From positions 2,820,559 to 2,884,558 of the forward strand of contig OZ251446.1 of NCBI GenBank assembly GCA_965242495.1: 64,000 nt of DNA, written 5' to 3'. Every line of letters begins with the position of its first letter. Positions within the stretch are counted from its first letter, which is position 1. The notes under the pieces are model-generated. The model had not been told where the DNA came from and searched no databases. It worked only from the letters and a program-made list of their open reading frames with translations. Shown here one piece after another: positions 2,317 to 18,469 of this stretch. A program made the position numbers and the translations under genes. The stretch is from Alphaproteobacteria bacterium (GTDB taxonomy: Bacteria; Pseudomonadota; Alphaproteobacteria; MPNO01).

Positions 2317-4727
2317 CCGGCCTGCTCCGTTCGTCTGCGATGGATCGCGGCTTCGATGTCTCCGATGCGGATCGGCAGCTCGTCGATCGCGATGCCGAGC
2401 GGCGCCAGCGCGTCGTTGACCGCGCTGGCGACCGCCGCCGGGGCGCCGAGATAGCCGCCTTCGCCCGAACCCTTCTGCCCCAGCGAGGTCAGCGGCGACG
2501 GCGTACAATGCTCCACGTCCCGGATCGTCGGCACTTCGTGGACCGAGGGCAGCAGATAGTCCACGAACGTGCCCGACAGATGCTGGCCGTCGGCGTCGTA
2601 TTCGAACTTCTCGTACAACGCGGCGCCGATGCCGTGGGCGATGCCGCCCAGGATCATGCCGCGCACGATGTCGGGGTTGATGACCGTGCCGCAGTCATGG
2701 GCGACGGCGTAGTCCAGCAGCGCGACCTTGCCGGTCCCCGGGTCGATCTCGACCAGCGGCAGATGCGCCTGGAAGGAAAAGCACGGGTAGAGCCGCGCCC
2801 GCCCCTCCGCATCCGGCAGCGCGCCGCCGCCCGGCACCGGGGTCACCGCCATCGCCTGCAGGCCGGGCTCCGTCCCCGGCGGCATCCGGTGCAGCTGCCG
2901 ATGGGCGATGAAGGCGACCTCCTCCCAGGTCAGCCGCCGCGCCGGCGCGCCGCGCACGGCGAACTCGCCCATGGCGTAGTCGATCCGCGCCTCCTCGACG
3001 CCGAGATCGTGCGCGGCGATGCGGATCATGCGCGCCTTGATCGCGCGCGCCGCCTGCGACGTCGCGCCGCCGAGTACGATCGCCATCCGGCTGGCGACCG
3101 GGCTCCGGGTCGGCAGCGCGTCGAGCGAGGCGGCGTGGACGACGCGGATCGCGTCGGGGTCGCGCTCGAGCTCCTCGCCGGCCACCGTGGCGACCAGCGT
3201 CTCGTGCCCCTGTCCCGACGTCGTGGTCGCCATCGCCGCGGTGACGCCGCCATGCGGGTCGACTTTCATCAGGCAGGATTCGACGAAGGTCGTGACCTCG
3301 AGCCGCGGATTGATCATCGACTCGAAGACGTTGTTGCCGCCGCCCGGTTCCAGGCAGGTCGCGATCCCGATCCCGGCCAGCCGGCCGTCGGCGCGCAGAC
3401 GGTCGCGGCGCGCGATCAGCTCGGGGTAGCGCGCCAGCGCCAGGGCCTTGTCCAGCACCGCGTGATAATCGCCCGAATCGTATTCGGCGCCCGAAGGGAT
3501 GCGCCAGGGGAACTCGTCGCGGCGGATGAAGTTGCGTCGGCGCGCCTCCAGCCGGTCGATCCCCAGCCGCCGGGCCACGCGCTCGATGCCGGTCTCGATG
3601 GCGAAGTTGGTGGGCGACTGGCCGAAGCCGCGCACCGGTACCTGGCCGGTCTTGTTCGAGGCGACCGAGATCGCCTCGTAGGCGACCGAGTTGATCCGGT
3701 AAGGACCGACGATGGCGGTGATCGGCTTTCCCAGCTGCAGCGGCGCGCGGCCGGGATAGGCGCCTGTGTCGTCGATCGCCCGCATCTTCATCGAGCGCAC
3801 CAGCCCGTCGTCGTCGAAGGCGAGCGTCACGTCGAAGATGCGGTCGGGGCCATGGGCGTCGCCGCCCGACATGTTGTCGAGCCGGTCCTCGATCAGCCGT
3901 ACCGGCGCGCCCAGCTTGCGCGCGAGATAGCCGGCCAGAACCGTATGCTTGATGCCCCGCTTGACGCCGTAGCTGCCGCCCACGTCGACGTCGTTATGCA
4001 CCTGGACGGCGTTCAAGGGGATGCCGAGGGCGTCGGCGATCTGCTCCGCATAGTTGGGCATCTGGATGGAGGCCCAGACGTCGAGGATCCGCCGCGCCTC
4101 GTCCCAGCGCGCGACCACGCCGAAGGTCTCGATCGGGACGGTCGCGCTGCGCCCCCAGCGCGCGCGGTAGGACAGTCGGTGCCGGGCGGCGGCGAAGTCT
4201 TCGGCCACCGGCCCCCATTCGAACGCGCCCCGATAGAGCACGTTGCTGCCATGGTCGGGATGGACCAGCGGCGCGTCGTCCCGCATCGCCGCCTCCGAAT
4301 CGACCGCGGCCGGCAGCGGCCGGTACTCGACCTCGATCTTTTCGGCCGCGTCCTCGGCGGCGTAGCGCGAGTCCGCGGCCACCGCCGCGACCCATTCGCC
4401 GGCATAGCGCGTCATGCCGACCGCCAGCGGGCGCCATTTCACCGCCGGCAGATGGAGGCCGTGGAACAGCGGCTTCGTAGCCCCGGCGAGCTCGTCGCCG
4501 GTGAGCACGGCTTCCACGCCGGGCGAAGCGAGGGCGCGCGTCGCGTCGATGCGCCGTATCTCGGCGCGGGCGTGCGGGCTCGCCGCCAGGGCGACGTGTT
4601 TCATGCCGGGCAGCCGCAGATCGGCGACGAACTTCCCGCTTCCGGCGACGAAGCGCCGGTCCTCCCGCACCCGCCGCTTGCGCGAGACGTGGAGGTAGTT
4701 GGCGCCGCGCGCCGGCGCGTCAGCCAT
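2313..4727 (-). CDS. Molybdopterin-dependent hydroxylase large subunit (xanthine dehydrogenase / CoxL family)
   Basis: 804-aa ORF with family-typical N-terminus (RVREDRRFVAGSGKFVADL, HVALAASPHARAEI) and organisation throughout. It overlaps the small-subunit gene end by 8 nt. Confidence 0.85.
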   Translation of the reverse strand: MADAPARGANYLHVSRKRRVREDRRFVAGSGKFVADLRLPGMKHVALAASPHARAEIRRIDATRALASPGVEAVLTGDELAGATKPLFHGLHLPAVKWRPLAVGMTRYAGEWVAAVAADSRYAAEDAAEKIEVEYRPLPAAVDSEAAMRDDAPLVHPDHGSNVLYRGAFEWGPVAEDFAAARHRLSYRARWGRSATVPIETFGVVARWDEARRILDVWASIQMPNYAEQIADALGIPLNAVQVHNDVDVGGSYGVKRGIKHTVLAGYLARKLGAPVRLIEDRLDNMSGGDAHGPDRIFDVTLAFDDDGLVRSMKMRAIDDTGAYPGRAPLQLGKPITAIVGPYRINSVAYEAISVASNKTGQVPVRGFGQSPTNFAIETGIERVARRLGIDRLEARRRNFIRRDEFPWRIPSGAEYDSGDYHAVLDKALALARYPELIARRDRLRADGRLAGIGIATCLEPGGGNNVFESMINPRLEVTTFVESCLMKVDPHGGVTAAMATTTSGQGHETLVATVAGEELERDPDAIRVVHAASLDALPTRSPVASRMAIVLGGATSQAARAIKARMIRIAAHDLGVEEARIDYAMGEFAVRGAPARRLTWEEVAFIAHRQLHRMPPGTEPGLQAMAVTPVPGGGALPDAEGRARLYPCFSFQAHLPLVEIDPGTGKVALLDYAVAHDCGTVINPDIVRGMILGGIAHGIGAALYEKFEYDADGQHLSGTFVDYLLPSVHEVPTIRDVEHCTPSPLTSLGQKGSGEGGYLGAPAAVASAVNDALAPLGIAIDELPIRIGDIEAAIHRRRTEQAG

Positions 4728-5211
4728 CGCGGGTCGCCTCCGCCGCGCGCCGCGCGGCGAGCCGGATCGCCTCGACGATCTGGACGTAGCCGGTGCAGCG
4801 GCACAGGTTGCCGCCGATCGCCTCCCGGATCTCCTCGTCGGAGGGGTCCGGGTTCGACCGCAGCAGCGCCTCCGCGGCGACGATCATGCCCGGCGTGCAA
4901 TAGCCGCACTGCATCGCGTGCGCTTCCCAGAAACAGTCCTGCACCGAGCCGGGCGCGCCGTCGGCGCCGGCCAGCCCCTCGATGGTCGTCACCTCGTGGC
5001 CCGCGGCCTGGACGGCGAACAGCAGGCAGGACCGGATCGCCTCGCCGTCGAGCAGCACCGAGCACGCGCCGCAGACGCCGTGCTCGCAGCCGACATGGGT
5101 CCCGGTCAACCCCAGCTCGTCGCGCAGAAAATCGACCAGCGTCAGGCGCGGCGCGACCTCGGCCCGCCGCGGCCGGCCGTTGACGGCGACGACGATCTCG
5201 CGCCGCGTCAC
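4720..5211 (-). CDS. (2Fe-2S)-binding small subunit of the molybdo-hydroxylase (CoxS-like)
   Basis: Both cluster motifs are present: [11 protein letters not shown] and QCGYCTPG...CRCTGY. The start GTG at 5211 overlaps the CoxM-like stop (GTGA). The upstream part of track ORF 4720..6036 is spurious. Confidence 0.85.
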
Positions 5212-6086
5212 GTCCGCGCCTCCGCCGCGGCGTCGCGGATGGCGCGGGCGAGCAGCACCCGGCACACCCGGCGCCGATAGGCCGCGCTCGCGTGCAGGTC
5301 GTCGTCCGGCTCGATCGCCGGATCGATCAGCGCCAGCGCTTCGTCCAGCTCGCCTTCGCCCAGGCGGGTCCCGGTCAGCGCCCGCTCGATCGCCGTGAAC
5401 CGGACCGGAACGGGCCCGACGCCGCCGGCCGCGGCCGCCAGGCGCGCGCACCTCCCGCCGGCGTCGAGCCGAAGCTGGGCGCAGGCGGCGACGATCGCGA
5501 AGTCGCCGGCGCGGCTCGCGACCTCGTGGAAGGCGGCGCCGACGCGGCCGCCCGGCCATACCGGGAAGCGGATCTCGGTCAGGCACTGGTCGGGGCGCAG
5601 CGCGGTGACCATCGGCGCGGCGAAGAATTCGCCGGCGGCGAAGACGGTCTCGCCCTCGCCGCTGCGGGCGATCAGCGTCGCGTCGAGGGCGCGGGCCGCC
5701 AGCGGGATCTCGGCCGCCGGATCTCCATGCGCCAACGACCCGCCGATCGTACCCCGGTTGCGGATCTGGACGTGGCCGACGAAAGCCAGCGCCCTGGCCA
5801 ACAGAGGCGCGCGGGCGCGGACCTCGCCCGACAGTTCGGCCCGGCGCTGGCGGGTGCAGGCCTTGATCGTCAGCTCGCCGTCCGCAACGCGGACGCCGCG
5901 CAGCTCGGCCACGTCGTTGATGTCGATCAGCAGCGACGGGCGCGCCAGGCGCATCGCCATCAGGGGCGCCAACGTCTGCCCCCCGGCGACGATCTTGCGC
6001 TCGGCCCCGCCATCCGCCCCGGCGAGCGCCTCGCACGCCTCGCCGACGCTGCCGGCGCGGAGATAGTCGAATTCCGCCGCTTTCAT
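5208..6086 (-). CDS. FAD-binding medium subunit of the molybdo-hydroxylase (CoxM-like)
   Basis: MKAAEFDYLRAGSVGEA...IVAGGQTLAPLM...IRNRGTIGGSLAH is typical of FAD_binding_5/CO_deh_flav_C proteins. It is the first gene of the five-gene minus-strand operon. Confidence 0.85.
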   Translation of the reverse strand: MKAAEFDYLRAGSVGEACEALAGADGGAERKIVAGGQTLAPLMAMRLARPSLLIDINDVAELRGVRVADGELTIKACTRQRRAELSGEVRARAPLLARALAFVGHVQIRNRGTIGGSLAHGDPAAEIPLAARALDATLIARSGEGETVFAAGEFFAAPMVTALRPDQCLTEIRFPVWPGGRVGAAFHEVASRAGDFAIVAACAQLRLDAGGRCARLAAAAGGVGPVPVRFTAIERALTGTRLGEGELDEALALIDPAIEPDDDLHASAAYRRRVCRVLLARAIRDAAAEART

Positions 6087-6354
6087 CCCCGGCCCGGTCC
6101 GCCCCCGCGCCCCGCGTATGGCGCGCGGGCAGTTACCCCGTCCCGCCCACCGCGGTCAAGCGACGCGGCGGCCGCGCCGTTCGTCGGCCGCACGGGCGGC
6201 GCCGGTCTGCGCCGCCGCGACCTCCCGGTCGGGAGCGCCGAAGAGCCTCCGTTCTCCGTTGGAAGACGTTCATGAATCACCGACAACCCGTTTTACGCCG
6301 CCCGCCGCCCGGAATATGGTCCGCGCCGCAAGTCGGCCGGCAGGGACGTCGCGC

Positions 6355-6996
6355 ATGAGCTCGATCCGCTATCCGGTTCTCGTCTGTCTGGGGGCGGCGA
6401 TGCTCGCCGCCGCTTCGCCGGTCGGGGCGGCGTCTGCGCCCGAGGCGTCCGCCTTGCCCGAGGCGGCGTCCGCCTTCGTCCGCGATCTCGGCGACCGCGT
6501 GGTCGAGCTGCGGCGCGCGCCCGACCGCAGCCGCGCCGCCCGCCACGCGGCCTTTCGCGAGCTGCTGGCCCGGAAGTTCGACATGCGTCTGATCGGCCGC
6601 TACGCCGTCGGGCGGCATTGGCGTCGGGCGAGCGCGGCGCAGCGGCGGGACTATCTCGCCTTGTTCCGCGAATACGTCGTGCTCACCTATGCGGAGCGGC
6701 TGGGCAGGGACGGCGGCGAGCGACTCGAAGTCGTCTCCGAGCGGGCGCTCGCCAACGGCAGGGACGTGCTGGTCGCCGCCCGCATCCGGCGTCCGTCCCG
6801 ACCGCCGATCGAGACCACCCTCCGGGTCCGCGAGACCGGACGCGGGCTCCGCATCGTCGATGTCCTGGTCGCCGGCGCCAGCATGGTGGTCACCCAGCGG
6901 GAGGAGTTCGGCGCCGTCGTCGGCAGGAGCGGGATGGACGGTTTGCTGGAGATTCTCCGCGCGCGGATCGCCGACCTGTCGGCGACGGACGGCTGA
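6355..6996 (+). CDS. MlaC/Ttg2D-family periplasmic phospholipid-binding protein
   Basis: Signal peptide MSSIRYPVLVCLGAAMLAAASPVGAA, then an MlaC-like pattern (FDMRLIGRYAVGRHWRRASAAQRRDYLALFREYVVLTY...IVDVLVAGASMVVTQREEF). The N-terminal 79 codons of the track ORF were rejected. Confidence 0.7.
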   Translation: MSSIRYPVLVCLGAAMLAAASPVGAASAPEASALPEAASAFVRDLGDRVVELRRAPDRSRAARHAAFRELLARKFDMRLIGRYAVGRHWRRASAAQRRDYLALFREYVVLTYAERLGRDGGERLEVVSERALANGRDVLVAARIRRPSRPPIETTLRVRETGRGLRIVDVLVAGASMVVTQREEFGAVVGRSGMDGLLEILRARIADLSATDG

Positions 6997-7011
6997 GCGC
7001 CGGTTCGGGCG

Positions 7012-7665
7012 ATGCCCGCGGTTCCGGTGCTGACCCAGGCGGGCTTCCGCCGCGCCGTCGACGCGCTGGCCGCGGCCGATGCGGATCTCGGGCGCGTGGT
7101 CGCCGGGTTCGGCCGCCCGCCGATGCGGCGGCGCGAGCAGGGGTTCGCCACCCTCGTCCTGTTGATCCTGGAGCAGCAGGTCTCGCTGGCGTCGGCGCGC
7201 GCGACCTTCGACCGGCTCGCGGGCCGGATCGGCGCGGTCGAGCCGGCGCGCATTCTCGCCCTCGGCGAGGGCGAGCTGCGCGCCCTCGGGCTGAGCCGCC
7301 AGAAGGCGCGCTACGTCGGCGGGCTGGCGGAGAGCGTCCGCGACGGCGCGCTCGATCTCGCCCGGCTGGCGGCGCTTCCCGACGCGGCCGCGCACGCCGC
7401 GCTGGTCGGCGTCACCGGGATCGGCGACTGGACGGCGGACGTCTATCTGATGACCGCGCTGCGGCGTCCCGACGTGTGGCCGACGAAGGATCTGGCGCTC
7501 GCCGTCGCGACCCGGGAGGTGAAGCGGCTCGGCGCCCGGCCCGGCCCGGTCGAACTCGCCGCGGTCGGCGAGGCCTGGCGGCCGCGGCGCGCCGTCGCCG
7601 CCCGCATCCTGTGGCATCACTACCTGAACACCAAGCGACGCGGCGCCGGAGGCCGTCCGACATGA
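7012..7665 (+). CDS. HhH-GPD DNA glycosylase (AlkA-type DNA-3-methyladenine glycosylase II)
   Basis: LILEQQVSLASARATFDRL...LSRQKARYVGGLA...LVGVTGIGDWTADVYL contains the helix-hairpin-helix/GPD region with its catalytic Asp context. Confidence 0.75.
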   Translation: MPAVPVLTQAGFRRAVDALAAADADLGRVVAGFGRPPMRRREQGFATLVLLILEQQVSLASARATFDRLAGRIGAVEPARILALGEGELRALGLSRQKARYVGGLAESVRDGALDLARLAALPDAAAHAALVGVTGIGDWTADVYLMTALRRPDVWPTKDLALAVATREVKRLGARPGPVELAAVGEAWRPRRAVAARILWHHYLNTKRRGAGGRPT

Positions 7666-8339
7666 CCGACATGATGGAACTCGCCGGCCCGCGTTTCGGC
7701 CCGGCGTCGGGCGGCGCGGCCCGTCGGCTGGTCGTTCTGCTGCACGGGTTGGGGGCCGACGGCGACGACCTGATCCCGCTCGCGCCGCATTTCGCCGAGG
7801 CCCTGCCCGACGCCGCCTTCGTCTCGCCCAACGCGCCCTATCCCTGCGACATGGCGCCGCACGGCTACCAGTGGTTCAGCATCCAGACGACCGACCCGGT
7901 CCTCGGCCTCGCCCGGATCCGCCAGACCGCCCGGATATTGAATGCGTTCCTCGACGCCGAACTCGCTCGCCGCGGGCTCGCCGACCGCGACCTCGCTCTG
8001 GTCGGATTCTCCCAGGGCGCGATGATGTCGCTGTTCGTGGCGCCCCGGCGCGATTCCGCCTGCGCCGGCGTCGTCGGCTATTCCGGGCGGCTCGATTCCC
8101 CCGACGCCCTGGCCGCCGAACTCCGTTCCCGGCCGCCGGTCGTCTTGATCCACGGCGAGCGGGACGAGCTGCTGCCGGCGGCCTTGATGGACGCCGCCGC
8201 GCAGGCGCTGCGGTCGAACGGGATCGAGGTCGAGACCCATCTTCGCCCGGGCCTCGGTCACGGCATCGACGAAGCCGGGATCCAGCTCGGCAGGCGATTC
8301 CTCCGCCGGGCGCTCGCGCCCTCCGACGGCGGCGGGTGA
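7662..8339 (+). CDS. Phospholipase/carboxylesterase family alpha/beta hydrolase
   Basis: VVLLHGLGADGDDL, a GFSQGAMM nucleophile elbow, and HGERDELLP...GLGHGI. The ATG at 7662 overlaps the previous stop (ATGA). Confidence 0.75.
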   Translation: MTDMMELAGPRFGPASGGAARRLVVLLHGLGADGDDLIPLAPHFAEALPDAAFVSPNAPYPCDMAPHGYQWFSIQTTDPVLGLARIRQTARILNAFLDAELARRGLADRDLALVGFSQGAMMSLFVAPRRDSACAGVVGYSGRLDSPDALAAELRSRPPVVLIHGERDELLPAALMDAAAQALRSNGIEVETHLRPGLGHGIDEAGIQLGRRFLRRALAPSDGGG

Positions 8340-8396
8340 TGGCGCGCGGCCCGTCGATCCGGCTATAGTCGGGCCAATCGATCAGGATACGATCCC

Positions 8397-8957
8397 GTGA
8401 GCGCTCCCAGCGACTGCCCGGCCCTGGTGCTCAACGCCGACTACCGGCCGTTGAGCTACTTCCCGCTGTCGCTCTGGTCGTGGCAGGATGCGGTCAAGGC
8501 GGCGTTCCTCGAACGGGTGAGCATCCTCTCCGAGTACGAGCGCATCGTGCGCTCGCCCGGCTTCGCGATGCGCCTGCCAAGCGTCATCGCCCTCAAGACC
8601 TACATCCCGATGGCGCGGCGCCCGGCCTTCACCCGGTTCAACGTGTTCCTGCGCGATCGCTTCGCGTGCCAGTACTGCGCCTCGGCGATGCCGGCCTCGG
8701 ACCTCACCTTCGATCACGTCGTGCCGCGCTCGCGCGGCGGCTACACCGCCTGGGACAACGTCGTCGCGGCCTGCACCGGCTGCAATCTCAGGAAGGGCGA
8801 CCGGTTGCCGCAGGAGCGCGGGATGCGCCCGCGCCGCCCCCCGCGCGAGCCGACCAACCACGAGCTGCAGGAGAACGGCCGCGCCTTCCCGCCCAACTTC
8901 CTGCACCAGAGCTGGAGCGACTTCCTCTACTGGGACAGCGAACTGGATCCCGGATAG
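8397..8957 (+). CDS. HNH endonuclease family protein
   Basis: CQYC...FDHVVPRSRGGYTAWDNVVAACTGCNLRKG is the HNH/zinc-ribbon motif. The start codon is GTG. Confidence 0.75.
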   Translation: MSAPSDCPALVLNADYRPLSYFPLSLWSWQDAVKAAFLERVSILSEYERIVRSPGFAMRLPSVIALKTYIPMARRPAFTRFNVFLRDRFACQYCASAMPASDLTFDHVVPRSRGGYTAWDNVVAACTGCNLRKGDRLPQERGMRPRRPPREPTNHELQENGRAFPPNFLHQSWSDFLYWDSELDPG

Positions 8958-8978
8958 CCTTCCGGACGGCCATGGACG

Positions 8979-9824
8979 TCAGTCGGCGAAGCGCGCCGTC
9001 GCCGTCATCGCCGTCCCGCCGTCCGCGTCCGTCACCCACAGCTCGGCCGAGCGCCCATCCGCGCCCGGCCTGCCGGCGACGGTGAACGGCCCGGTGTCGT
9101 AGATCGGATAGCGGTTGTCGTAGTCGAACCCCGCGACGCGCCGCGCCGGCATCTCCCGCCGGCACAGTTCGAGCAGCAGCTGGGCTTCGAGCGTCCCGTG
9201 CACCATCAGCCCGGGCAGCCCCTCCGTCCGCATTGCGAAGTCGCGATCGAAATGGACGCGGTGGCTGTTGAACCGGACGGCGCCGTAACGGAACAACAGC
9301 AGCGGGGTGGGGTGGACGACGCGCCGCCAGGCGGGCGAGGCGGGCGCCGGCGTCTTCGCCGCCGGCGGCTCGTCGTCGAGATAGAGCATCGTCCGCTCTT
9401 CGACCACGGCGAGGCCGCGCTCGCAGGAGATGCGGTTGCGGAGGTCGAGATATACCGCCGGGCCGTCCGCCGCCTGCTCGATCCGCAGGTCGGCCACCAC
9501 CGACTCGCGGGTCATCTCGTCGCCGATCCGCAGCGGTTCGTGGAACGTCATGCGCTCGCCGCCCAGCCGCTGGCGCGGCAAGGGGATCGCCGGGACCAGG
9601 CCGCCGCCCGCGGCCTGGCCGTCGGGGCGGGCCGCGGCCGACGGGTAGAGCGGGCTGAAGAACGCGGTATGCCATCCGGCCGGGATCGGATCGCCCGGCC
9701 GCGCCGCCGGCGCCGCCGCGTCGAGCGTCGCCGCGAGCCGCGCGATCGCCGCCGCGGTCACCGTATCGGTCGCCGCGGCGCTGTTTCCGACCGCCTGCTT
9801 CAGGTCGCCCAGCTCCGCCGTCAT
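8979..9824 (-). CDS. Hotdog-fold hydratase (FAS1-like dehydratase N-domain + MaoC-like C-domain; itaconyl/mesaconyl-CoA hydratase-like)
   Basis: Starts at MTAELGDLK (ATG at 9824). The C-terminal part has FRYGAVRFNSHRVHFD...GLMVHGTL, typical of MaoC dehydratases. The upstream 73 codons of the track ORF were rejected. Confidence 0.62.
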   Translation of the reverse strand: MTAELGDLKQAVGNSAAATDTVTAAAIARLAATLDAAAPAARPGDPIPAGWHTAFFSPLYPSAAARPDGQAAGGGLVPAIPLPRQRLGGERMTFHEPLRIGDEMTRESVVADLRIEQAADGPAVYLDLRNRISCERGLAVVEERTMLYLDDEPPAAKTPAPASPAWRRVVHPTPLLLFRYGAVRFNSHRVHFDRDFAMRTEGLPGLMVHGTLEAQLLLELCRREMPARRVAGFDYDNRYPIYDTGPFTVAGRPGADGRSAELWVTDADGGTAMTATARFAD

Positions 9825-14388: not shown

Positions 14389-14522
14389 GGGGTCCGATCC
14401 CGTCGCGGCTGCGCAGTATGGGCGAAGCGCCCTCCGGGCGCGCGCGAAATCGATGGACTATGGCCGCCGTCCGGGCGACTCTGCGCCGGCCAGCGATCGG
14501 CGGGCGGGACCGAGGAGTCGGC

Positions 14523-16904
14523 ATGACCGCATCCCCGCGGCGGACCAGGGTCCGCACCGGCGCCCATTGGGGCATGTACGAAGCCGAAGTCGAGGATGGC
14601 CGGCTGGTCGCCGCCGCGCCGTTCGCGGGCGATCCCGATCCCAGCCCGATCGTCGCCGCCATGCCGAGCGCCGTCCATGCCGAATGCCGCGTCGAGCGGC
14701 CGATGGTGCGCAAGGGGTGGCTGGACCGCGGCGTCGACGGCGGCGGCGCGGGCCGCGGCGTCGAACCCTTCGTCCCGGTGACCTGGGACCAAGCCCTCGA
14801 CCTCGTGGCCGGCGAGCTCCGGCGCGTCAAGACCCGTTACGGCAACGAGGCGATCTACGCCTGTTCCGGCTGGGCGAGCGCGGGCGCCTTCCACCAGGCC
14901 CATGCCCAGCTCCACCGCTTCCTGAACTGCTTCGGCGGCGCCATCGGCTCGGTCACCAACTGGAGCTTCGGGGCCGCCAGCGTCATCGTGCCCCGCGTCG
15001 TCGGCACAATGGAGCCGGTGGTCGGGCGGATCACCTCCTGGCCCACGATCGCCGCGCATAGCGACATGATGGTCCTGTTCGGCGGCATCGCGCCCAAGAA
15101 CGCGCAGGTCAACATGTACGGCATCGGCCGCCACGAAACCGCGGGTTGGCTGCGGCGGGTCGCCGAGGCGGGAGTCGAGCTGGTCAGCATCAGCCCGATT
15201 CGCGACGACGCGGCGGCTTGCCCCGGGGCCGAATGGCTGCCGATCCGCCCCAACGCCGACACCGCCCTGATGCTCGGGTTGATGCACACGCTGGTCGCCG
15301 AGGAGCTGCACGACCGGGCGTTCCTCGACCGCTACTGCGTGAGCTTCGATCGCTTCCGCCGCTATCTGATGGGCGAGACCGACGGCGCGCCCAAGTCCGC
15401 CGAATGGGCCGCCGGCCTCGCCGAGATCGACGCCGGCGCGATCCGCGCCCTGGCCCGGCGCATGGCCGGCGCGCGCTGCCTGATCGCCGCGAGCTGGTCG
15501 GTCCAGCGCGCCGACCATGGCGAGCAGCCCTACTGGGCGTTGATCGCCCTGGCGGCGCTGCTCGGCCAGATCGGGCTGCCCGGCGGCGGGTTCGGGTTCG
15601 GCTACGGCGCCACCGGCACGCTCGGCGGGCCGCGGCCCAAGCTCCCGGCGCCGGCGCTGCCGACCGGCCGCAACCCGGTGGCGGCCTACATCCCGGTCGC
15701 CCGCCTCACCGACATGCTGCTCGCCCCCGGCGCGTCGTTCGACTTCAACGGCGAGCGGCTGACCTACCCGCACGCGCGGCTGATCTACTGGTGCGGCGGC
15801 AACCCCTTCCACAAGCAGCAGGACCTCAACCAGCTCGCCGCCGCGTGGCGCCGGCCCGAGACCGTCATCGTCCACGAGCCCTGGTGGACGCCGGCGGCGC
15901 GCCGGGCCGACGTCGTGCTCCCCTGCGCCACCACGGTCGAGCGCAACGACGTCGGCGGGTCGCCCTTCGACCGCTTCTGGTTCGCGATGCGGAAGGCGAT
16001 CGAGCCGGTCGGCGAGTCGCGGACCGAATACGACATCTATACCGCCCTCGCCGAACGGCTGGGGTTCGCCGACGCCTTCACCGAGGGGCGCAGCGAGATG
16101 GACTGGCTCCGCCATCTGTACGACGTCGCCCGCCAGGCCGCCGCGGCGCAGCGCTTCGAGACGCCCGGCTTCGACGAGTTCTGGCGCGCCGGCCATTTCG
16201 AGTTCCCTCCGCCCGAAGACCCGCCGGTCCTGTTCTCGGAGTTCCGCGCCGATCCGGAGGGCAACCCTCTCAAGACCCCGTCGGGCAGGATCGAGCTCTT
16301 CTCCGAGACCATCGACGGCTTCGGCTACGACGATTGCCCGGGCCATCCGGTCTGGTTGGAGCCCGGCGAATGGCTGGGCGCGGACCGCGCCGCGGTCTAT
16401 CCGCTGCATCTGATCTCCAACCAGCCGCGCTGGCGGCTGCACAGCCAGCTCGATTGCGGCGAGGTGAGCCGCGCCGCCAAGGTCGCCGGGCGGGAGCCGA
16501 TCCGCATCAACCGCGCCGACGCCGCGGCGCGCGGCATCGCCGATGGCGATCTGGTGCGGGTCTACAACGACCGCGGCGCCTGCCTCGCCGGGGCCTGCGT
16601 GACCGACGACGTCCGGCCGGGCGTGGCGCAGCTCGCGACCGGCGCCTGGTACGACCCGCACGATCCCGCCGAGGTCGGCAGCATCGATCTCCACGGCAAC
16701 CCCAACGTGCTCACCCGCAACAAGGGCACGTCCCGCCTCGCCCAGAGCTGCTCGGCGCAATCCACCCTGGTCGAGGTCGAGCGCTGCGGCGCCGAGGCGC
16801 CTCCGGTCGCCGCGTTCGACCCCCCGGCTTTCGTCGAAGCCCCAAGCGTGGATCCTCGGGGCTTGGATCCTCGGGATGCGGATCGCCAGACTCAGGACCT
16901 GTAA
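14523..16904 (+). CDS. Cytoplasmic bis-MGD molybdoenzyme of the BisC/TorA/DMSO-reductase family (biotin-sulfoxide/N-oxide reductase-like)
   Basis: Starts at MTASPRRTRVRTGAHWGMY (ATG at 14523) with no twin-arginine leader. WDQALDLVAGELRRV, NWSFGAASV, QPYWALIAL and HLISNQPRWRLHSQ are typical of this family. Confidence 0.8.
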   Translation: MTASPRRTRVRTGAHWGMYEAEVEDGRLVAAAPFAGDPDPSPIVAAMPSAVHAECRVERPMVRKGWLDRGVDGGGAGRGVEPFVPVTWDQALDLVAGELRRVKTRYGNEAIYACSGWASAGAFHQAHAQLHRFLNCFGGAIGSVTNWSFGAASVIVPRVVGTMEPVVGRITSWPTIAAHSDMMVLFGGIAPKNAQVNMYGIGRHETAGWLRRVAEAGVELVSISPIRDDAAACPGAEWLPIRPNADTALMLGLMHTLVAEELHDRAFLDRYCVSFDRFRRYLMGETDGAPKSAEWAAGLAEIDAGAIRALARRMAGARCLIAASWSVQRADHGEQPYWALIALAALLGQIGLPGGGFGFGYGATGTLGGPRPKLPAPALPTGRNPVAAYIPVARLTDMLLAPGASFDFNGERLTYPHARLIYWCGGNPFHKQQDLNQLAAAWRRPETVIVHEPWWTPAARRADVVLPCATTVERNDVGGSPFDRFWFAMRKAIEPVGESRTEYDIYTALAERLGFADAFTEGRSEMDWLRHLYDVARQAAAAQRFETPGFDEFWRAGHFEFPPPEDPPVLFSEFRADPEGNPLKTPSGRIELFSETIDGFGYDDCPGHPVWLEPGEWLGADRAAVYPLHLISNQPRWRLHSQLDCGEVSRAAKVAGREPIRINRADAAARGIADGDLVRVYNDRGACLAGACVTDDVRPGVAQLATGAWYDPHDPAEVGSIDLHGNPNVLTRNKGTSRLAQSCSAQSTLVEVERCGAEAPPVAAFDPPAFVEAPSVDPRGLDPRDADRQTQDL

Positions 16905-16988
16905 CGGGAGACAGTGACCGCGGCGGGCAACGAAAATTCATAGTTGGCGTATGCTTGTATTCGGCCCGTCGATATTGGGAGTCAAGCG

Positions 16989-17312
16989 GTGAAGAGCACG
17001 ATCTGGATAAGTTACGACCTCGGCGTAAATGGCGACTACGAAGGCATGTATGCGTGGCTGGACAACCACGGCGCGAAGGAGTGCGGTTCCAGCGTCGCCT
17101 TCGTAAAGCCATACGACTACGACGGCGAAGACCTGATGCAGGCATTGGAGTGCGACATCCGAGACACCGTCAAGATCGACAAGCGGACGAGAATCTATGT
17201 GATTCGGAGGGTCGATGGTAAGGAGAAAGGGGGGTTTCTCTTTGGCCGCCGGAAGGGGGCTCCTTGGGATGGCTATGGCCAGCAAGGCGATACCTTTGAC
17301 GACGAAGCGTGA
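16989..17312 (+). CDS. Hypothetical 107-aa protein with a Cas2/VapD-like sequence pattern
   Basis: GTG at 16989 lies 7 nt after GGGAG; the track's TTG at 16944 is an alternative start. The pattern IWISYDL / YEGMYAWLDNHG / AKECGSSVAFV / DLMQALECDIRDTV / RIYVIRR follows the Cas2 strand-helix order. The gene sits in a low-GC islet. The fold assignment is my inference only. Confidence 0.45.
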   Translation: MKSTIWISYDLGVNGDYEGMYAWLDNHGAKECGSSVAFVKPYDYDGEDLMQALECDIRDTVKIDKRTRIYVIRRVDGKEKGGFLFGRRKGAPWDGYGQQGDTFDDEA

Positions 17313-17321
17313 CCTGCGAAC

Positions 17322-17759
17322 ATGAACGGAGCTTTGCTGGCCGATACGGGCTACCTCATTGCGCTCTACGACGAAAGGGACGAGCACTACGCAGTGGCGC
17401 AACGCAATAAGCGCTTGCTGGATTTACACCCTGTGGTCCTGCCTTGGCCCGTTCTTTACGAGACGATCAATACGAGATTCGCGAGGAGGCCGAGCGTCTT
17501 GACGCGCATAGACTCGATAATTGCCAAGGCGGACACGCTCCTCCTGGACGATTCTCCGTATCGCGAGGGCGCCTATCGGCAGCTGCGGCGGACCTCCCGC
17601 AAGCGTCCACTGAGCCTCGTCGACGCGGTTCTCCGTGCAGTCATTGAAGACGAGAACGTGCGCATCTCCGGGCTGCTGACCTTCAACGCAAAGGACTTCC
17701 TCGATCTTTGCTACCCGCGCCATGTGGACTTACCGTGTCAGAACGCTCGCACGACATGA
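17322..17759 (+). CDS. PIN-domain ribonuclease (VapC-like)
   Basis: LLADTGYLIAL (N-terminal Asp), VLYETI (Glu), SLVDAVLRAV (Asp) and a C-terminal TFNAKDF. It starts 9 nt after the upstream stop and shares the low-GC composition. Confidence 0.75.
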   Translation: MNGALLADTGYLIALYDERDEHYAVAQRNKRLLDLHPVVLPWPVLYETINTRFARRPSVLTRIDSIIAKADTLLLDDSPYREGAYRQLRRTSRKRPLSLVDAVLRAVIEDENVRISGLLTFNAKDFLDLCYPRHVDLPCQNARTT

Positions 17760-17884
17760 GGCGTGGATGCGAGATGATGGTTCTCGTCAAGCGTAAGGCC
17801 GTCGTGCAAGTCGGCCGCGGCTGTCGCCCTCGGACGGATCCGGATGCGACCGCCGAACAGGCGGCGTATCGGTGAGCTTGGCGT

Positions 17885-18469
17885 ATGCGGGTTCTGCTGA
17901 TCTACGCCCACCCGGTCGAGACCAGCTTCAACGCCGCGGTCCATGACTGCGCGGTCCGGTCGCTGACCGCGGCCGGTCACGAGGTCGACGACTGCGACCT
18001 CTACGCCGAAGGGTTCGACCCGGTGCTGTCGCGCCAGGAGCGGCTCGACTATCACGACGAGCGCGTCAACCGGACCCATGCCGCCGGCTATATCGAGCGT
18101 CTGACCCGCGCCCAGGGGCTGATGTTCGTCTATCCGACCTGGAGCATGTCGCCGCCGGCGATCCTCAAGGGCTTCCTGGATCGGGTGATGGTTCCGGGCG
18201 TCGCGTTCGATCTCACCGACGACGGCAAGCTGACGCCGCGCCTGACCAATATCGGCCGGATCGGCGCCGCGGTGACCTACGGGCAGAAGCGCCTCGCGGC
18301 CGAATGGTTCGGCAACCCGTCGCGGCGGCTGATAACCCGCTACGTCAAGTTCTTCGCCGGGCCCGGCGCGCGGACGACCTTCCTGGCCTTCCACAACGTC
18401 AACGTTCCCGACGAGGCGCGCCGCCGCCGCCATCTCGACCGCGTGGCCCGCGAAATGGCGCGGTTCTGA
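17885..18469 (+). CDS. Flavodoxin-like-fold NAD(P)H dehydrogenase (quinone), Flavodoxin_2/NQO-KefF-like
   Basis: MRVLLIYAHPVETSFNAA...FVYPTWSMSPPAILKGFLDRV matches the family pattern. Confidence 0.8.
   Translation: MRVLLIYAHPVETSFNAAVHDCAVRSLTAAGHEVDDCDLYAEGFDPVLSRQERLDYHDERVNRTHAAGYIERLTRAQGLMFVYPTWSMSPPAILKGFLDRVMVPGVAFDLTDDGKLTPRLTNIGRIGAAVTYGQKRLAAEWFGNPSRRLITRYVKFFAGPGARTTFLAFHNVNVPDEARRRRHLDRVAREMARF

Follow-up and report, generated by a model that had tools for sequence, protein, structure and literature searches.

A Cas2-fold protein encoded beside a divergent PIN nuclease: a candidate mobile toxin–antitoxin module of the VapBC kind

PIN (VapC) nucleases are the most abundant toxins of toxin–antitoxin (TA) systems, and the antitoxins that accompany them are, with few exceptions, small proteins that bind DNA. 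Cas2 has been proposed to derive by recruitment from TA-type nucleases. The fold shared by Cas2 and VapD is already represented in TA systems by the toxin VapD and its inactivated self-antitoxin VapW (Gilep et al., 2025, PMC11980593), and GhoS, the type V antitoxin of GhoT in E. coli, also has a Cas2-like fold (PMC4010927). PIN toxins are known to pair with many antitoxin families; the NetFlax paper mentions none with a Cas2-like fold (PMC10440598), and neither VapD nor Cas2 is mentioned in the TA census published by Makarova in 2009. Here we analysed a stretch of 64,000 nucleotides (hereafter the window) from contig OZ251446.1 of an alphaproteobacterial genome, which carries two adjacent plus-strand genes, one for a 107-aa protein (16989–17312) with a predicted Cas2-like fold and the other, directly downstream, for a 145-aa PIN protein (17322–17759). 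The explanation that we favour, at a probability of roughly 0.55, is that the two genes form a horizontally mobile bicistronic type II TA module of the VapBC kind with a Cas2-fold antitoxin.

In such a module the downstream gene would supply the toxin, a catalytically intact PIN RNase, and the upstream gene would supply its obligate neutralising partner, in which a Cas2-like ferredoxin fold takes the place of the RHH, AbrB, Phd or HTH DNA-binding domain. The Cas2-fold core probably dimerises in the Cas2 manner, and a conserved R-K-x-x-P-W-x-G-x-G segment together with the acidic disordered tail may bind the PIN protein and block its RNA-binding and active-site groove. This use of the C-terminus would parallel that of the C-terminal strand of Cas2, which mediates Cas1 binding (PMC10491678). 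Loss or titration of the partner, for which element loss and phage infection are possible triggers, would free the PIN protein, leading to RNA cleavage and growth arrest. What we infer is that the two proteins bind physically, that the PIN protein is toxic and is neutralised, and that the tail has this role. The observations that speak for the TA module are the upstream position of the small gene on the same strand and at tight spacing, the occurrence of PIN never alone and of the small gene sometimes alone, the identity of the PIN protein with its conserved acidic residues, the Cas2-like fold with its antitoxin precedents in VapW and GhoS, the acidic tail that follows a conserved motif, and the signs of mobility with a setting among TA, defence or mobile genes.

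The second open reading frame (ORF), which the original prediction had assigned to the PIN nucleases, encodes a protein lying barely above the Pfam PF01850 threshold (24.2 bits against a cutoff of 23.6, E 5.6e-5). A profile built from 24 PIN partners matched VapC20 (E 0.038) and the VapC protein AF_1683 (E 0.087) in the PDB. In 63 full-length partners from related loci, conservation reaches at least 97% at D8, E47, D101 and D125, and also at N122 and three further acidic positions, D20, D77 and D110. Judged from these residues, the PIN protein of the window appears to be a divergent, catalytically intact VapC-type nuclease and is the probable toxin. The pair resembles VapBC in several respects, namely a PIN protein with four conserved acidic residues, a small partner gene just upstream in a tight operon, a mobile, low-GC cassette in variable context, and a toxin never found without its partner. 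It differs from VapBC in that the small protein lacks any RHH, AbrB, Phd or HTH domain, adopts a Cas2-like ferredoxin fold and is conserved like the toxin, that no palindromic operator was detected here, and that the PIN protein is so divergent.

The gene neighbourhoods were surveyed from both sides of the pair. The scan seeded with the small gene, restricted to one genome per species, comprised 80 loci, nearly all from metagenome-assembled genomes, which span at least 12 phyla; the taxa include Binatia, Latescibacterota, Alpha- and Gammaproteobacteria, Thermodesulfobacteriota/Syntrophobacteraceae, Entotheonella, Acidobacteriota, Gemmatimonadota, Nitrospirota, Planctomycetota, Calditrichota, Bacteroidota and Eremiobacterota. 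The results showed that a PIN homologue lies directly downstream on the same strand in 72 of the 80 loci, about nine of these paired PIN genes being truncated or frameshifted. PIN was undetected in the other eight, two of which (L019 and L039) retain a relic of the PIN N-terminus. The reciprocal scan of metagenomes, seeded with PIN and covering the best 80 of 372 relatives, found the small gene directly upstream in all 79 loci that had enough upstream sequence. Across 62 related loci the two genes are separated by −20 to +9 nt (9 nt in the window), and the arrangement is kept in about 150 loci. In all, 107 sequence pairs of small protein and PIN were recovered. The pairing and the non-canonical two-gene cassette that the original prediction had put forward are thus borne out in at least 12 phyla, with a partner that lacks the usual antitoxin domains.

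When TA pairs decay, the expected direction is that the toxin is lost and the antitoxin retained. PIN always occurs with the small gene and the small gene sometimes occurs without an intact PIN, and this is therefore the asymmetry expected of a toxic PIN protein and its antidote, which favours an antitoxin-like role for the small protein. The choice originally posed, between an antitoxin substitute and two cooperating nucleases, is narrowed by this asymmetry and not settled by it. We also considered the opposite polarity, with the Cas2/VapD-like protein as toxin and the PIN-like protein as antidote, which would have precedents in the VapD-fold toxins of VapXD, VapYD and VapWD (PMC11980593) and would agree with the conservation of D10 in the small protein. 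However, the intact small gene stands alone in several genomes and PIN never does, the PIN protein retains all of its catalytic acids, and the small gene lies upstream, where antitoxin genes typically are; the reversed polarity was rejected as highly improbable. Beside one of the orphan small genes (L017, 3026–4900), a putative RES-domain toxin with an upstream partner was noted by eye, and its surroundings suggest a TA-rich island.

The small protein belongs to a large family without an entry in the databases searched. Pfam, NCBIfam, PADLOC and PHROGs gave no match to the 107-aa protein, and Pfam, applied to 57 aligned members of the family at E values up to 10, gave none either. The PDB sequences were matched neither by the single sequence (phmmer) nor by the family profile, although they include Cas2, VapD, BPSL1038 and GhoS. 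At 90% identity the family falls into 244 clusters, and at the 50% level it has 411 representatives (E ≤1e-3); every member named at its source is labelled 'hypothetical'. Three parts can be distinguished in the protein: a globular core (residues 1–86), the conserved segment R88-K-x-x-P-W93-x-G95, and an acidic disordered tail (about 98–107). In 241 near-full-length members, conservation is 99.6–100% at D10 and no less than 94% at L24, A29, E31, C32, G33, A37, R68, Y70, G86, W93 and G95. The last 14 or so residues are variable and strongly acidic, with a mean net charge of −4.6, and the core is neutral. Some family members are far longer than 107 aa, including P0174 (244 aa), P0153, P0163, P0165, P0148 and P0254; in P0174 the small-protein domain occupies residues 136–241, and the longer members may be fusions or products of mis-called starts.

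To describe the fold, AlphaFold was run on the small protein of the window, using an alignment of 57 sequences, and on P0112, a family member 54% identical to it, as a second target. The model of the window protein, with a predicted local distance difference test (pLDDT) score of 86.8 and a predicted template modelling (pTM) score of 0.75, consists of β1 (2–10), α1 (17–26), a short β2 (30–31), β3 (36–43), α2 (49–60), β4 (68–75) and β5 (78–85), followed by a disordered tail. The P0112 model (pLDDT 82.5) has an identical topology, and the tail has a pLDDT below 50 in the models. As modelled, the order β1-α1-β2-β3-α2-β4-β5 of both proteins is the Cas2 order, and D10 is located at the end of β1 in both. 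The element order of Cas2/VapD and the invariant Asp at the end of β1, which had been read from the sequence beforehand, are accordingly reproduced by the two models.

Foldseek searches against the PDB pointed in the same direction. For the window model, 15 of the 16 top matches were Cas2 or the Cas2 domain of Cas2/3 (among them 5b7i, 2ivy, 1zpw, 4es2, 3exc, 6k2e, 7mid, 5xvp, 5g4d and 5zyf), with TM scores of about 0.5–0.6 and homology probabilities of up to 1.0; no match had an E value below 1e-3, and ACT-type and other ferredoxin-like domains scored far below Cas2. For the P0112 model, all 21 top matches were Cas2 proteins (I-E, I-F, I-C, II-A and Cas2-DEDDh), with a best E value of 2.8e-3, TM scores of up to 0.70 and probabilities of 0.8–1.0. 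Over both searches the Cas2 matches span E values from 2.8e-3 to 0.5. VapD (6zi1) appeared at about rank 31–32 in both searches (E 0.15–0.93), and neither GhoS (2LLZ) nor BPSL1038 reached the top 50 for either model. The fold search, which the original prediction had named as a check, placed Cas2 at the top for both models, and no known antitoxin domain was found by Pfam. Given the Cas2-like models and the lack of any such Pfam domain, the small protein was rejected as an RHH, AbrB, Phd or HTH antitoxin, as had been predicted.

At the sequence level the relation to Cas2 is much fainter. A Cas2 alignment was prepared from a consensus-like seed, for which 120 of the 120 matches listed carry PF09827, and three type II-A PDB sequences were added. 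Comparison of the small-protein family with 27–30 real Cas2 sequences by hhalign gave a probability of 0.3–0.6%, which was not significant in local or global mode. A relaxed local run yielded a collinear 86-column alignment (P about 0.1) that sets IWISYD over VLITYD, with D10 over Cas2 D8, and RIYVI over RFYYL. The motif correspondences with Cas2/VapD proposed earlier are therefore in register with the structure, but they are not accompanied by statistically detectable sequence homology. The likeness to Cas2 is one of fold and motif only, and because there is no statistical sign of sequence homology we call the protein Cas2-fold and do not file it as a member of the Cas2 family. A canonical orphan Cas2 was likewise rejected, no Pfam, profile or hhalign match having been obtained.

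These data bear on whether the likeness reflects common descent. It could instead be convergence on the common ferredoxin-like fold, which would make the small protein a new antitoxin family unrelated to Cas2/VapD; this explanation rivals the homology claim only and leaves the TA function untouched. It would account for the silence of Pfam on the 57 members, of the PDB profile search and of hhalign, as well as for the modest Foldseek values (E 2.8e-3 to 1, TM 0.5–0.7). On the other side, many Cas2 subtypes head both lists at homology probabilities of 0.9–1.0, with ACT, RRM and other ferredoxin-like domains ranked well behind, and the Y-D at the end of β1 and the R-x-Y in β4 fall in the Cas2 register in the relaxed alignment. 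We regard convergence as a serious possibility, with the balance somewhat against it. In its resemblance to Cas2, the small protein shares the ferredoxin-like fold, the best structural match, the Tyr-Asp at the end of β1 and a C-terminal extension, which in Cas2 binds Cas1. It departs from Cas2 in that no sequence homology is detectable, that no CRISPR array or canonical cas2 lies near, that the partner is PIN rather than Cas1, and that the E-C-G turn, the P-W-x-G motif and the acidic tail are specific to its own family.

The surroundings of the pair were also inspected for CRISPR components. No CRISPR-like tandem array was found in the 64-kb window, the canonical Cas2 profile had no match there (cas1 and other cas genes were not searched by profile), and a scan of the whole window at Rfam gathering thresholds returned no RNA family, whether tRNA, riboswitch or CRISPR repeat family. 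This agrees with the absence of CRISPR elements from the window stated in the original prediction. In 1.1 Mb of fetched loci, the only marginal match to the canonical Cas2 profile (E 5e-4 to 0.02) lies on the minus strand in the flank of the module in L064, and it could be a real cas2 nearby by chance.

Cas2-like folds outside CRISPR systems offer a closer view of the conserved polar residues. In BPSL1038 the active site combines D11 with an SST turn that follows it at a distance of exactly 20 residues, at the β2-β3 turn (PMC10491678), and the small-protein family has D10-(X20)-E31-C32-G33 at the equivalent positions. The two proteins are thus alike in having a Cas2-like fold outside CRISPR that is detectable only by structure and in the D-X20-triad arrangement (D11-X20-SST against D10-X20-ECG), whereas BPSL1038 stands alone, carries an added C-terminal helix and has a Ser/Thr triad in place of Glu-Cys-Gly. 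The family might be a new widespread lineage of catalytically competent Cas2-like proteins, acting jointly with a PIN RNase in a conflict module of two nucleases. D10 and the E31-C32-G33 turn would then make up the putative active site, and the protein would either sense or cleave nucleic acid to license PIN, or neutralise PIN enzymatically. We consider this proposal rather unlikely.

A related explanation is that the pair is a two-component defence or abortive-infection system, in which the Cas2-fold protein is an active nuclease or a sensor that licenses PIN, and not a plain antitoxin. The near-invariant D10 and the E31-C32-G33 turn at the spacing of the BPSL1038 active site are compatible with it, as are the conservation of the small protein, at least as high as that of PIN, and the defence-type neighbours (WYL/WCX regulators, a STAND-like ATPase, DUF4238 and a P2-like prophage region). 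A precedent is provided by DS-5, reported with DefensePredictor, in which the partner of a PIN protein is required for defence and is not an antitoxin (PMC13092281). Like the present pair, DS-5 consists of two genes, for a PIN RNase and a small accessory protein, but its partner combines DUF5830 with an AcrIF4-like domain, has been shown to be no antitoxin and is unrelated to the small protein, which has no Pfam match. Solo small genes and decayed PIN genes, with no solo PIN, fit the logic of an antitoxin better; moreover, PADLOC gave no match, the module is present on one of about 2.9 million viral contigs, and the nuclease activity of the small protein is putative. We therefore hold a defence system of this sort to be doubtful.

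VapD, VapW and GhoS are described cases in which a Cas2-related fold operates in TA systems. VapW uses this fold as an antitoxin (PMC11980593), as we propose for the small protein; however, VapW has lost the catalytic Asp and Ser and neutralises its own paralogue VapD, whereas here the Asp is invariant and the partner is an unrelated PIN protein. VapD is a weaker structural match than Cas2, and it is accompanied by VapX, VapY (SH3 fold) or VapW, or stands alone, in contrast to the PIN partner here (72/80 and 79/79 loci). GhoS resembles the small protein in being an antitoxin of Cas2-like fold encoded upstream of its toxin, but it cleaves the toxin mRNA, its toxin is a membrane peptide, and it has no sequence similarity to the small protein. 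By analogy, a type V-like mechanism can be envisaged, in which a GhoS-like Cas2-fold endoribonuclease cleaves the PIN mRNA instead of binding the PIN protein. The example of GhoS itself (PMC4010927), the conservation of putative catalytic residues, and the lack of both a recognisable DNA-binding domain and an operator palindrome would be in keeping with this mechanism. Yet GhoS ranks outside the top 50 for both models, the conserved C-terminal motif and acidic tail resemble a protein-binding module, and type V so far comprises one narrow family, whose toxin is a membrane peptide, all of which makes the mechanism improbable in our estimation.

Several observations weigh against a VapBC-like TA module. 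The small protein contains no recognisable DNA-binding domain, and analysis of upstream palindromes in 103 loci revealed no enrichment over shuffled sequences and hence no operator signal. PADLOC (PADLOC-DB 2.0), searched at E values up to 10, has no model that matches either protein. The small protein is slightly more conserved than PIN, with a mean pairwise identity of 0.49 (0.52 for the core) against 0.45 and a higher value in 76% of pairs, which is unusual in an antitoxin. In addition, the near-invariant D10, E31, C32 and R68, at positions equivalent to the Cas2/BPSL1038 active sites, suggest catalysis or ligand binding; even within the TA module, the conserved polar residues leave room for an additional activity.

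The mobility of the cassette is supported by its composition, its changing neighbours and a bracketing repeat. The GC trough noted earlier between the molybdoenzyme gene and the NQO gene was confirmed: in 300-nt windows the GC fraction is 0.55–0.60 across about 16800–17700, against 0.70–0.77 upstream and 0.65–0.72 downstream, and the two-gene cassette has 0.581 against 0.707 in the 3-kb flanks. In 78 of the 80 loci the cassette has a lower GC content than its flanks, the mean difference being 7.7 points. Homologues that share about 80% identity with the small protein of the window (on contigs L162 and L163) lie in contexts unrelated to the window and differing from each other, with a HicA toxin, a DDE transposase fragment, DUF1156 and an AAA ATPase next to L162, and WYL/WCX regulators and a large AAA/STAND-like ATPase next to L163; these are typical TA, defence or mobile settings. 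The low-GC cassette of the window is enclosed by two perfect copies of an 11-nt direct repeat, TTGGCGTATGC (16944–16954 and 17878–17888), a suggestive placement with a P of about 0.005 against shuffles and about 0.03 against controls of the same geometry elsewhere in the window. Alignment of the left and right flanks showed that the similarity does not extend beyond the 11-mer. Since the ATG (17885) of the flavodoxin-like gene falls within the right copy, the left copy is suggestive of a duplicated gene start left by an insertion, and the repeat is a possible insertion footprint or target duplication. Horizontal acquisition, as originally proposed, is supported by these three lines of evidence.

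Phage origin was examined as a source of this mobility. In the viral collection the module occurs on only one of about 2.9 million contigs (L161, IMGVR_UViG_3300018868_000040), where its genes (5992–6330 and 6331–6768) lie in a P2-like prophage region (3741–9705) between Ogr/Delta zinc-finger and HTH repressor-like genes on one side and DUF4238 and gpD tail genes on the other, a position that could be an accessory or defence-gene slot. The structural matches of the small protein in BFVD were all weak and uncharacterised. Because of this single viral contig and these matches, a phage origin was rejected, and the module is not typically phage-borne.

If the TA module is as proposed, the small protein would provide PIN toxins with an antitoxin architecture that is new to them and would add a new, widespread lineage of Cas2-fold proteins not tied to CRISPR, without being categorically new. 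A Cas2-fold partner conserved across at least 12 phyla and present in no Pfam, NCBIfam or PADLOC entry would add a new architecture to the partner-swapping network of TA systems. It would also be the third independent case of the Cas2/VapD fold on the antitoxin side, after GhoS and VapW, and one that keeps the signature Asp, and an antitoxin-side Cas2 fold bears on the proposed recruitment of Cas2 from TA-type nucleases. Should the protein prove to be a competent Cas2-like nuclease, it would be a candidate relative of the TA-like ancestor of Cas2, structurally closer to Cas2 than VapD is. The pair is a tractable system for comparing how Cas2 scaffolds engage and regulate their partner enzymes, be it Cas1 or PIN, and about 400 cluster representatives now called 'hypothetical' could be annotated.

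The remaining features of the locus concern its start sites and flanks. The small gene, encoding the probable antitoxin or obligate partner, could be read from an upstream TTG (16944), giving 122 aa, or from the GTG at 16989, giving 107 aa; since the homologues are 105–108 aa long, the GTG is the correct start, as first proposed. A Shine-Dalgarno-like GGGAG (16977–16981, plus strand) lies 7 nt before this GTG, and such a motif occurs at −20 to −4 of the small-gene start in 82 of 103 related loci. The promoter and terminator scans gave zero matches, and no inverted repeat was found upstream of the small gene in the window. The upstream flank is an 828-aa molybdopterin oxidoreductase gene (14418–16904; PF00384, PF01568 and PF18364), and the downstream flank is a 194-aa flavodoxin-like NAD(P)H quinone reductase gene (17885–18469; PF02525, Flavodoxin_2, and PF03358, FMN_red), in line with the first description of both. 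In the 3′ coding end of the molybdopterin oxidoreductase gene, at 16846–16879, two tandem copies of a 15-nt repeat, GCGTGGATCCTCGGG, encode a repeated DPRG/DPR peptide, and a related string, GGATCCGGATGCG, is located at 17836–17848, 3′ of the PIN gene.

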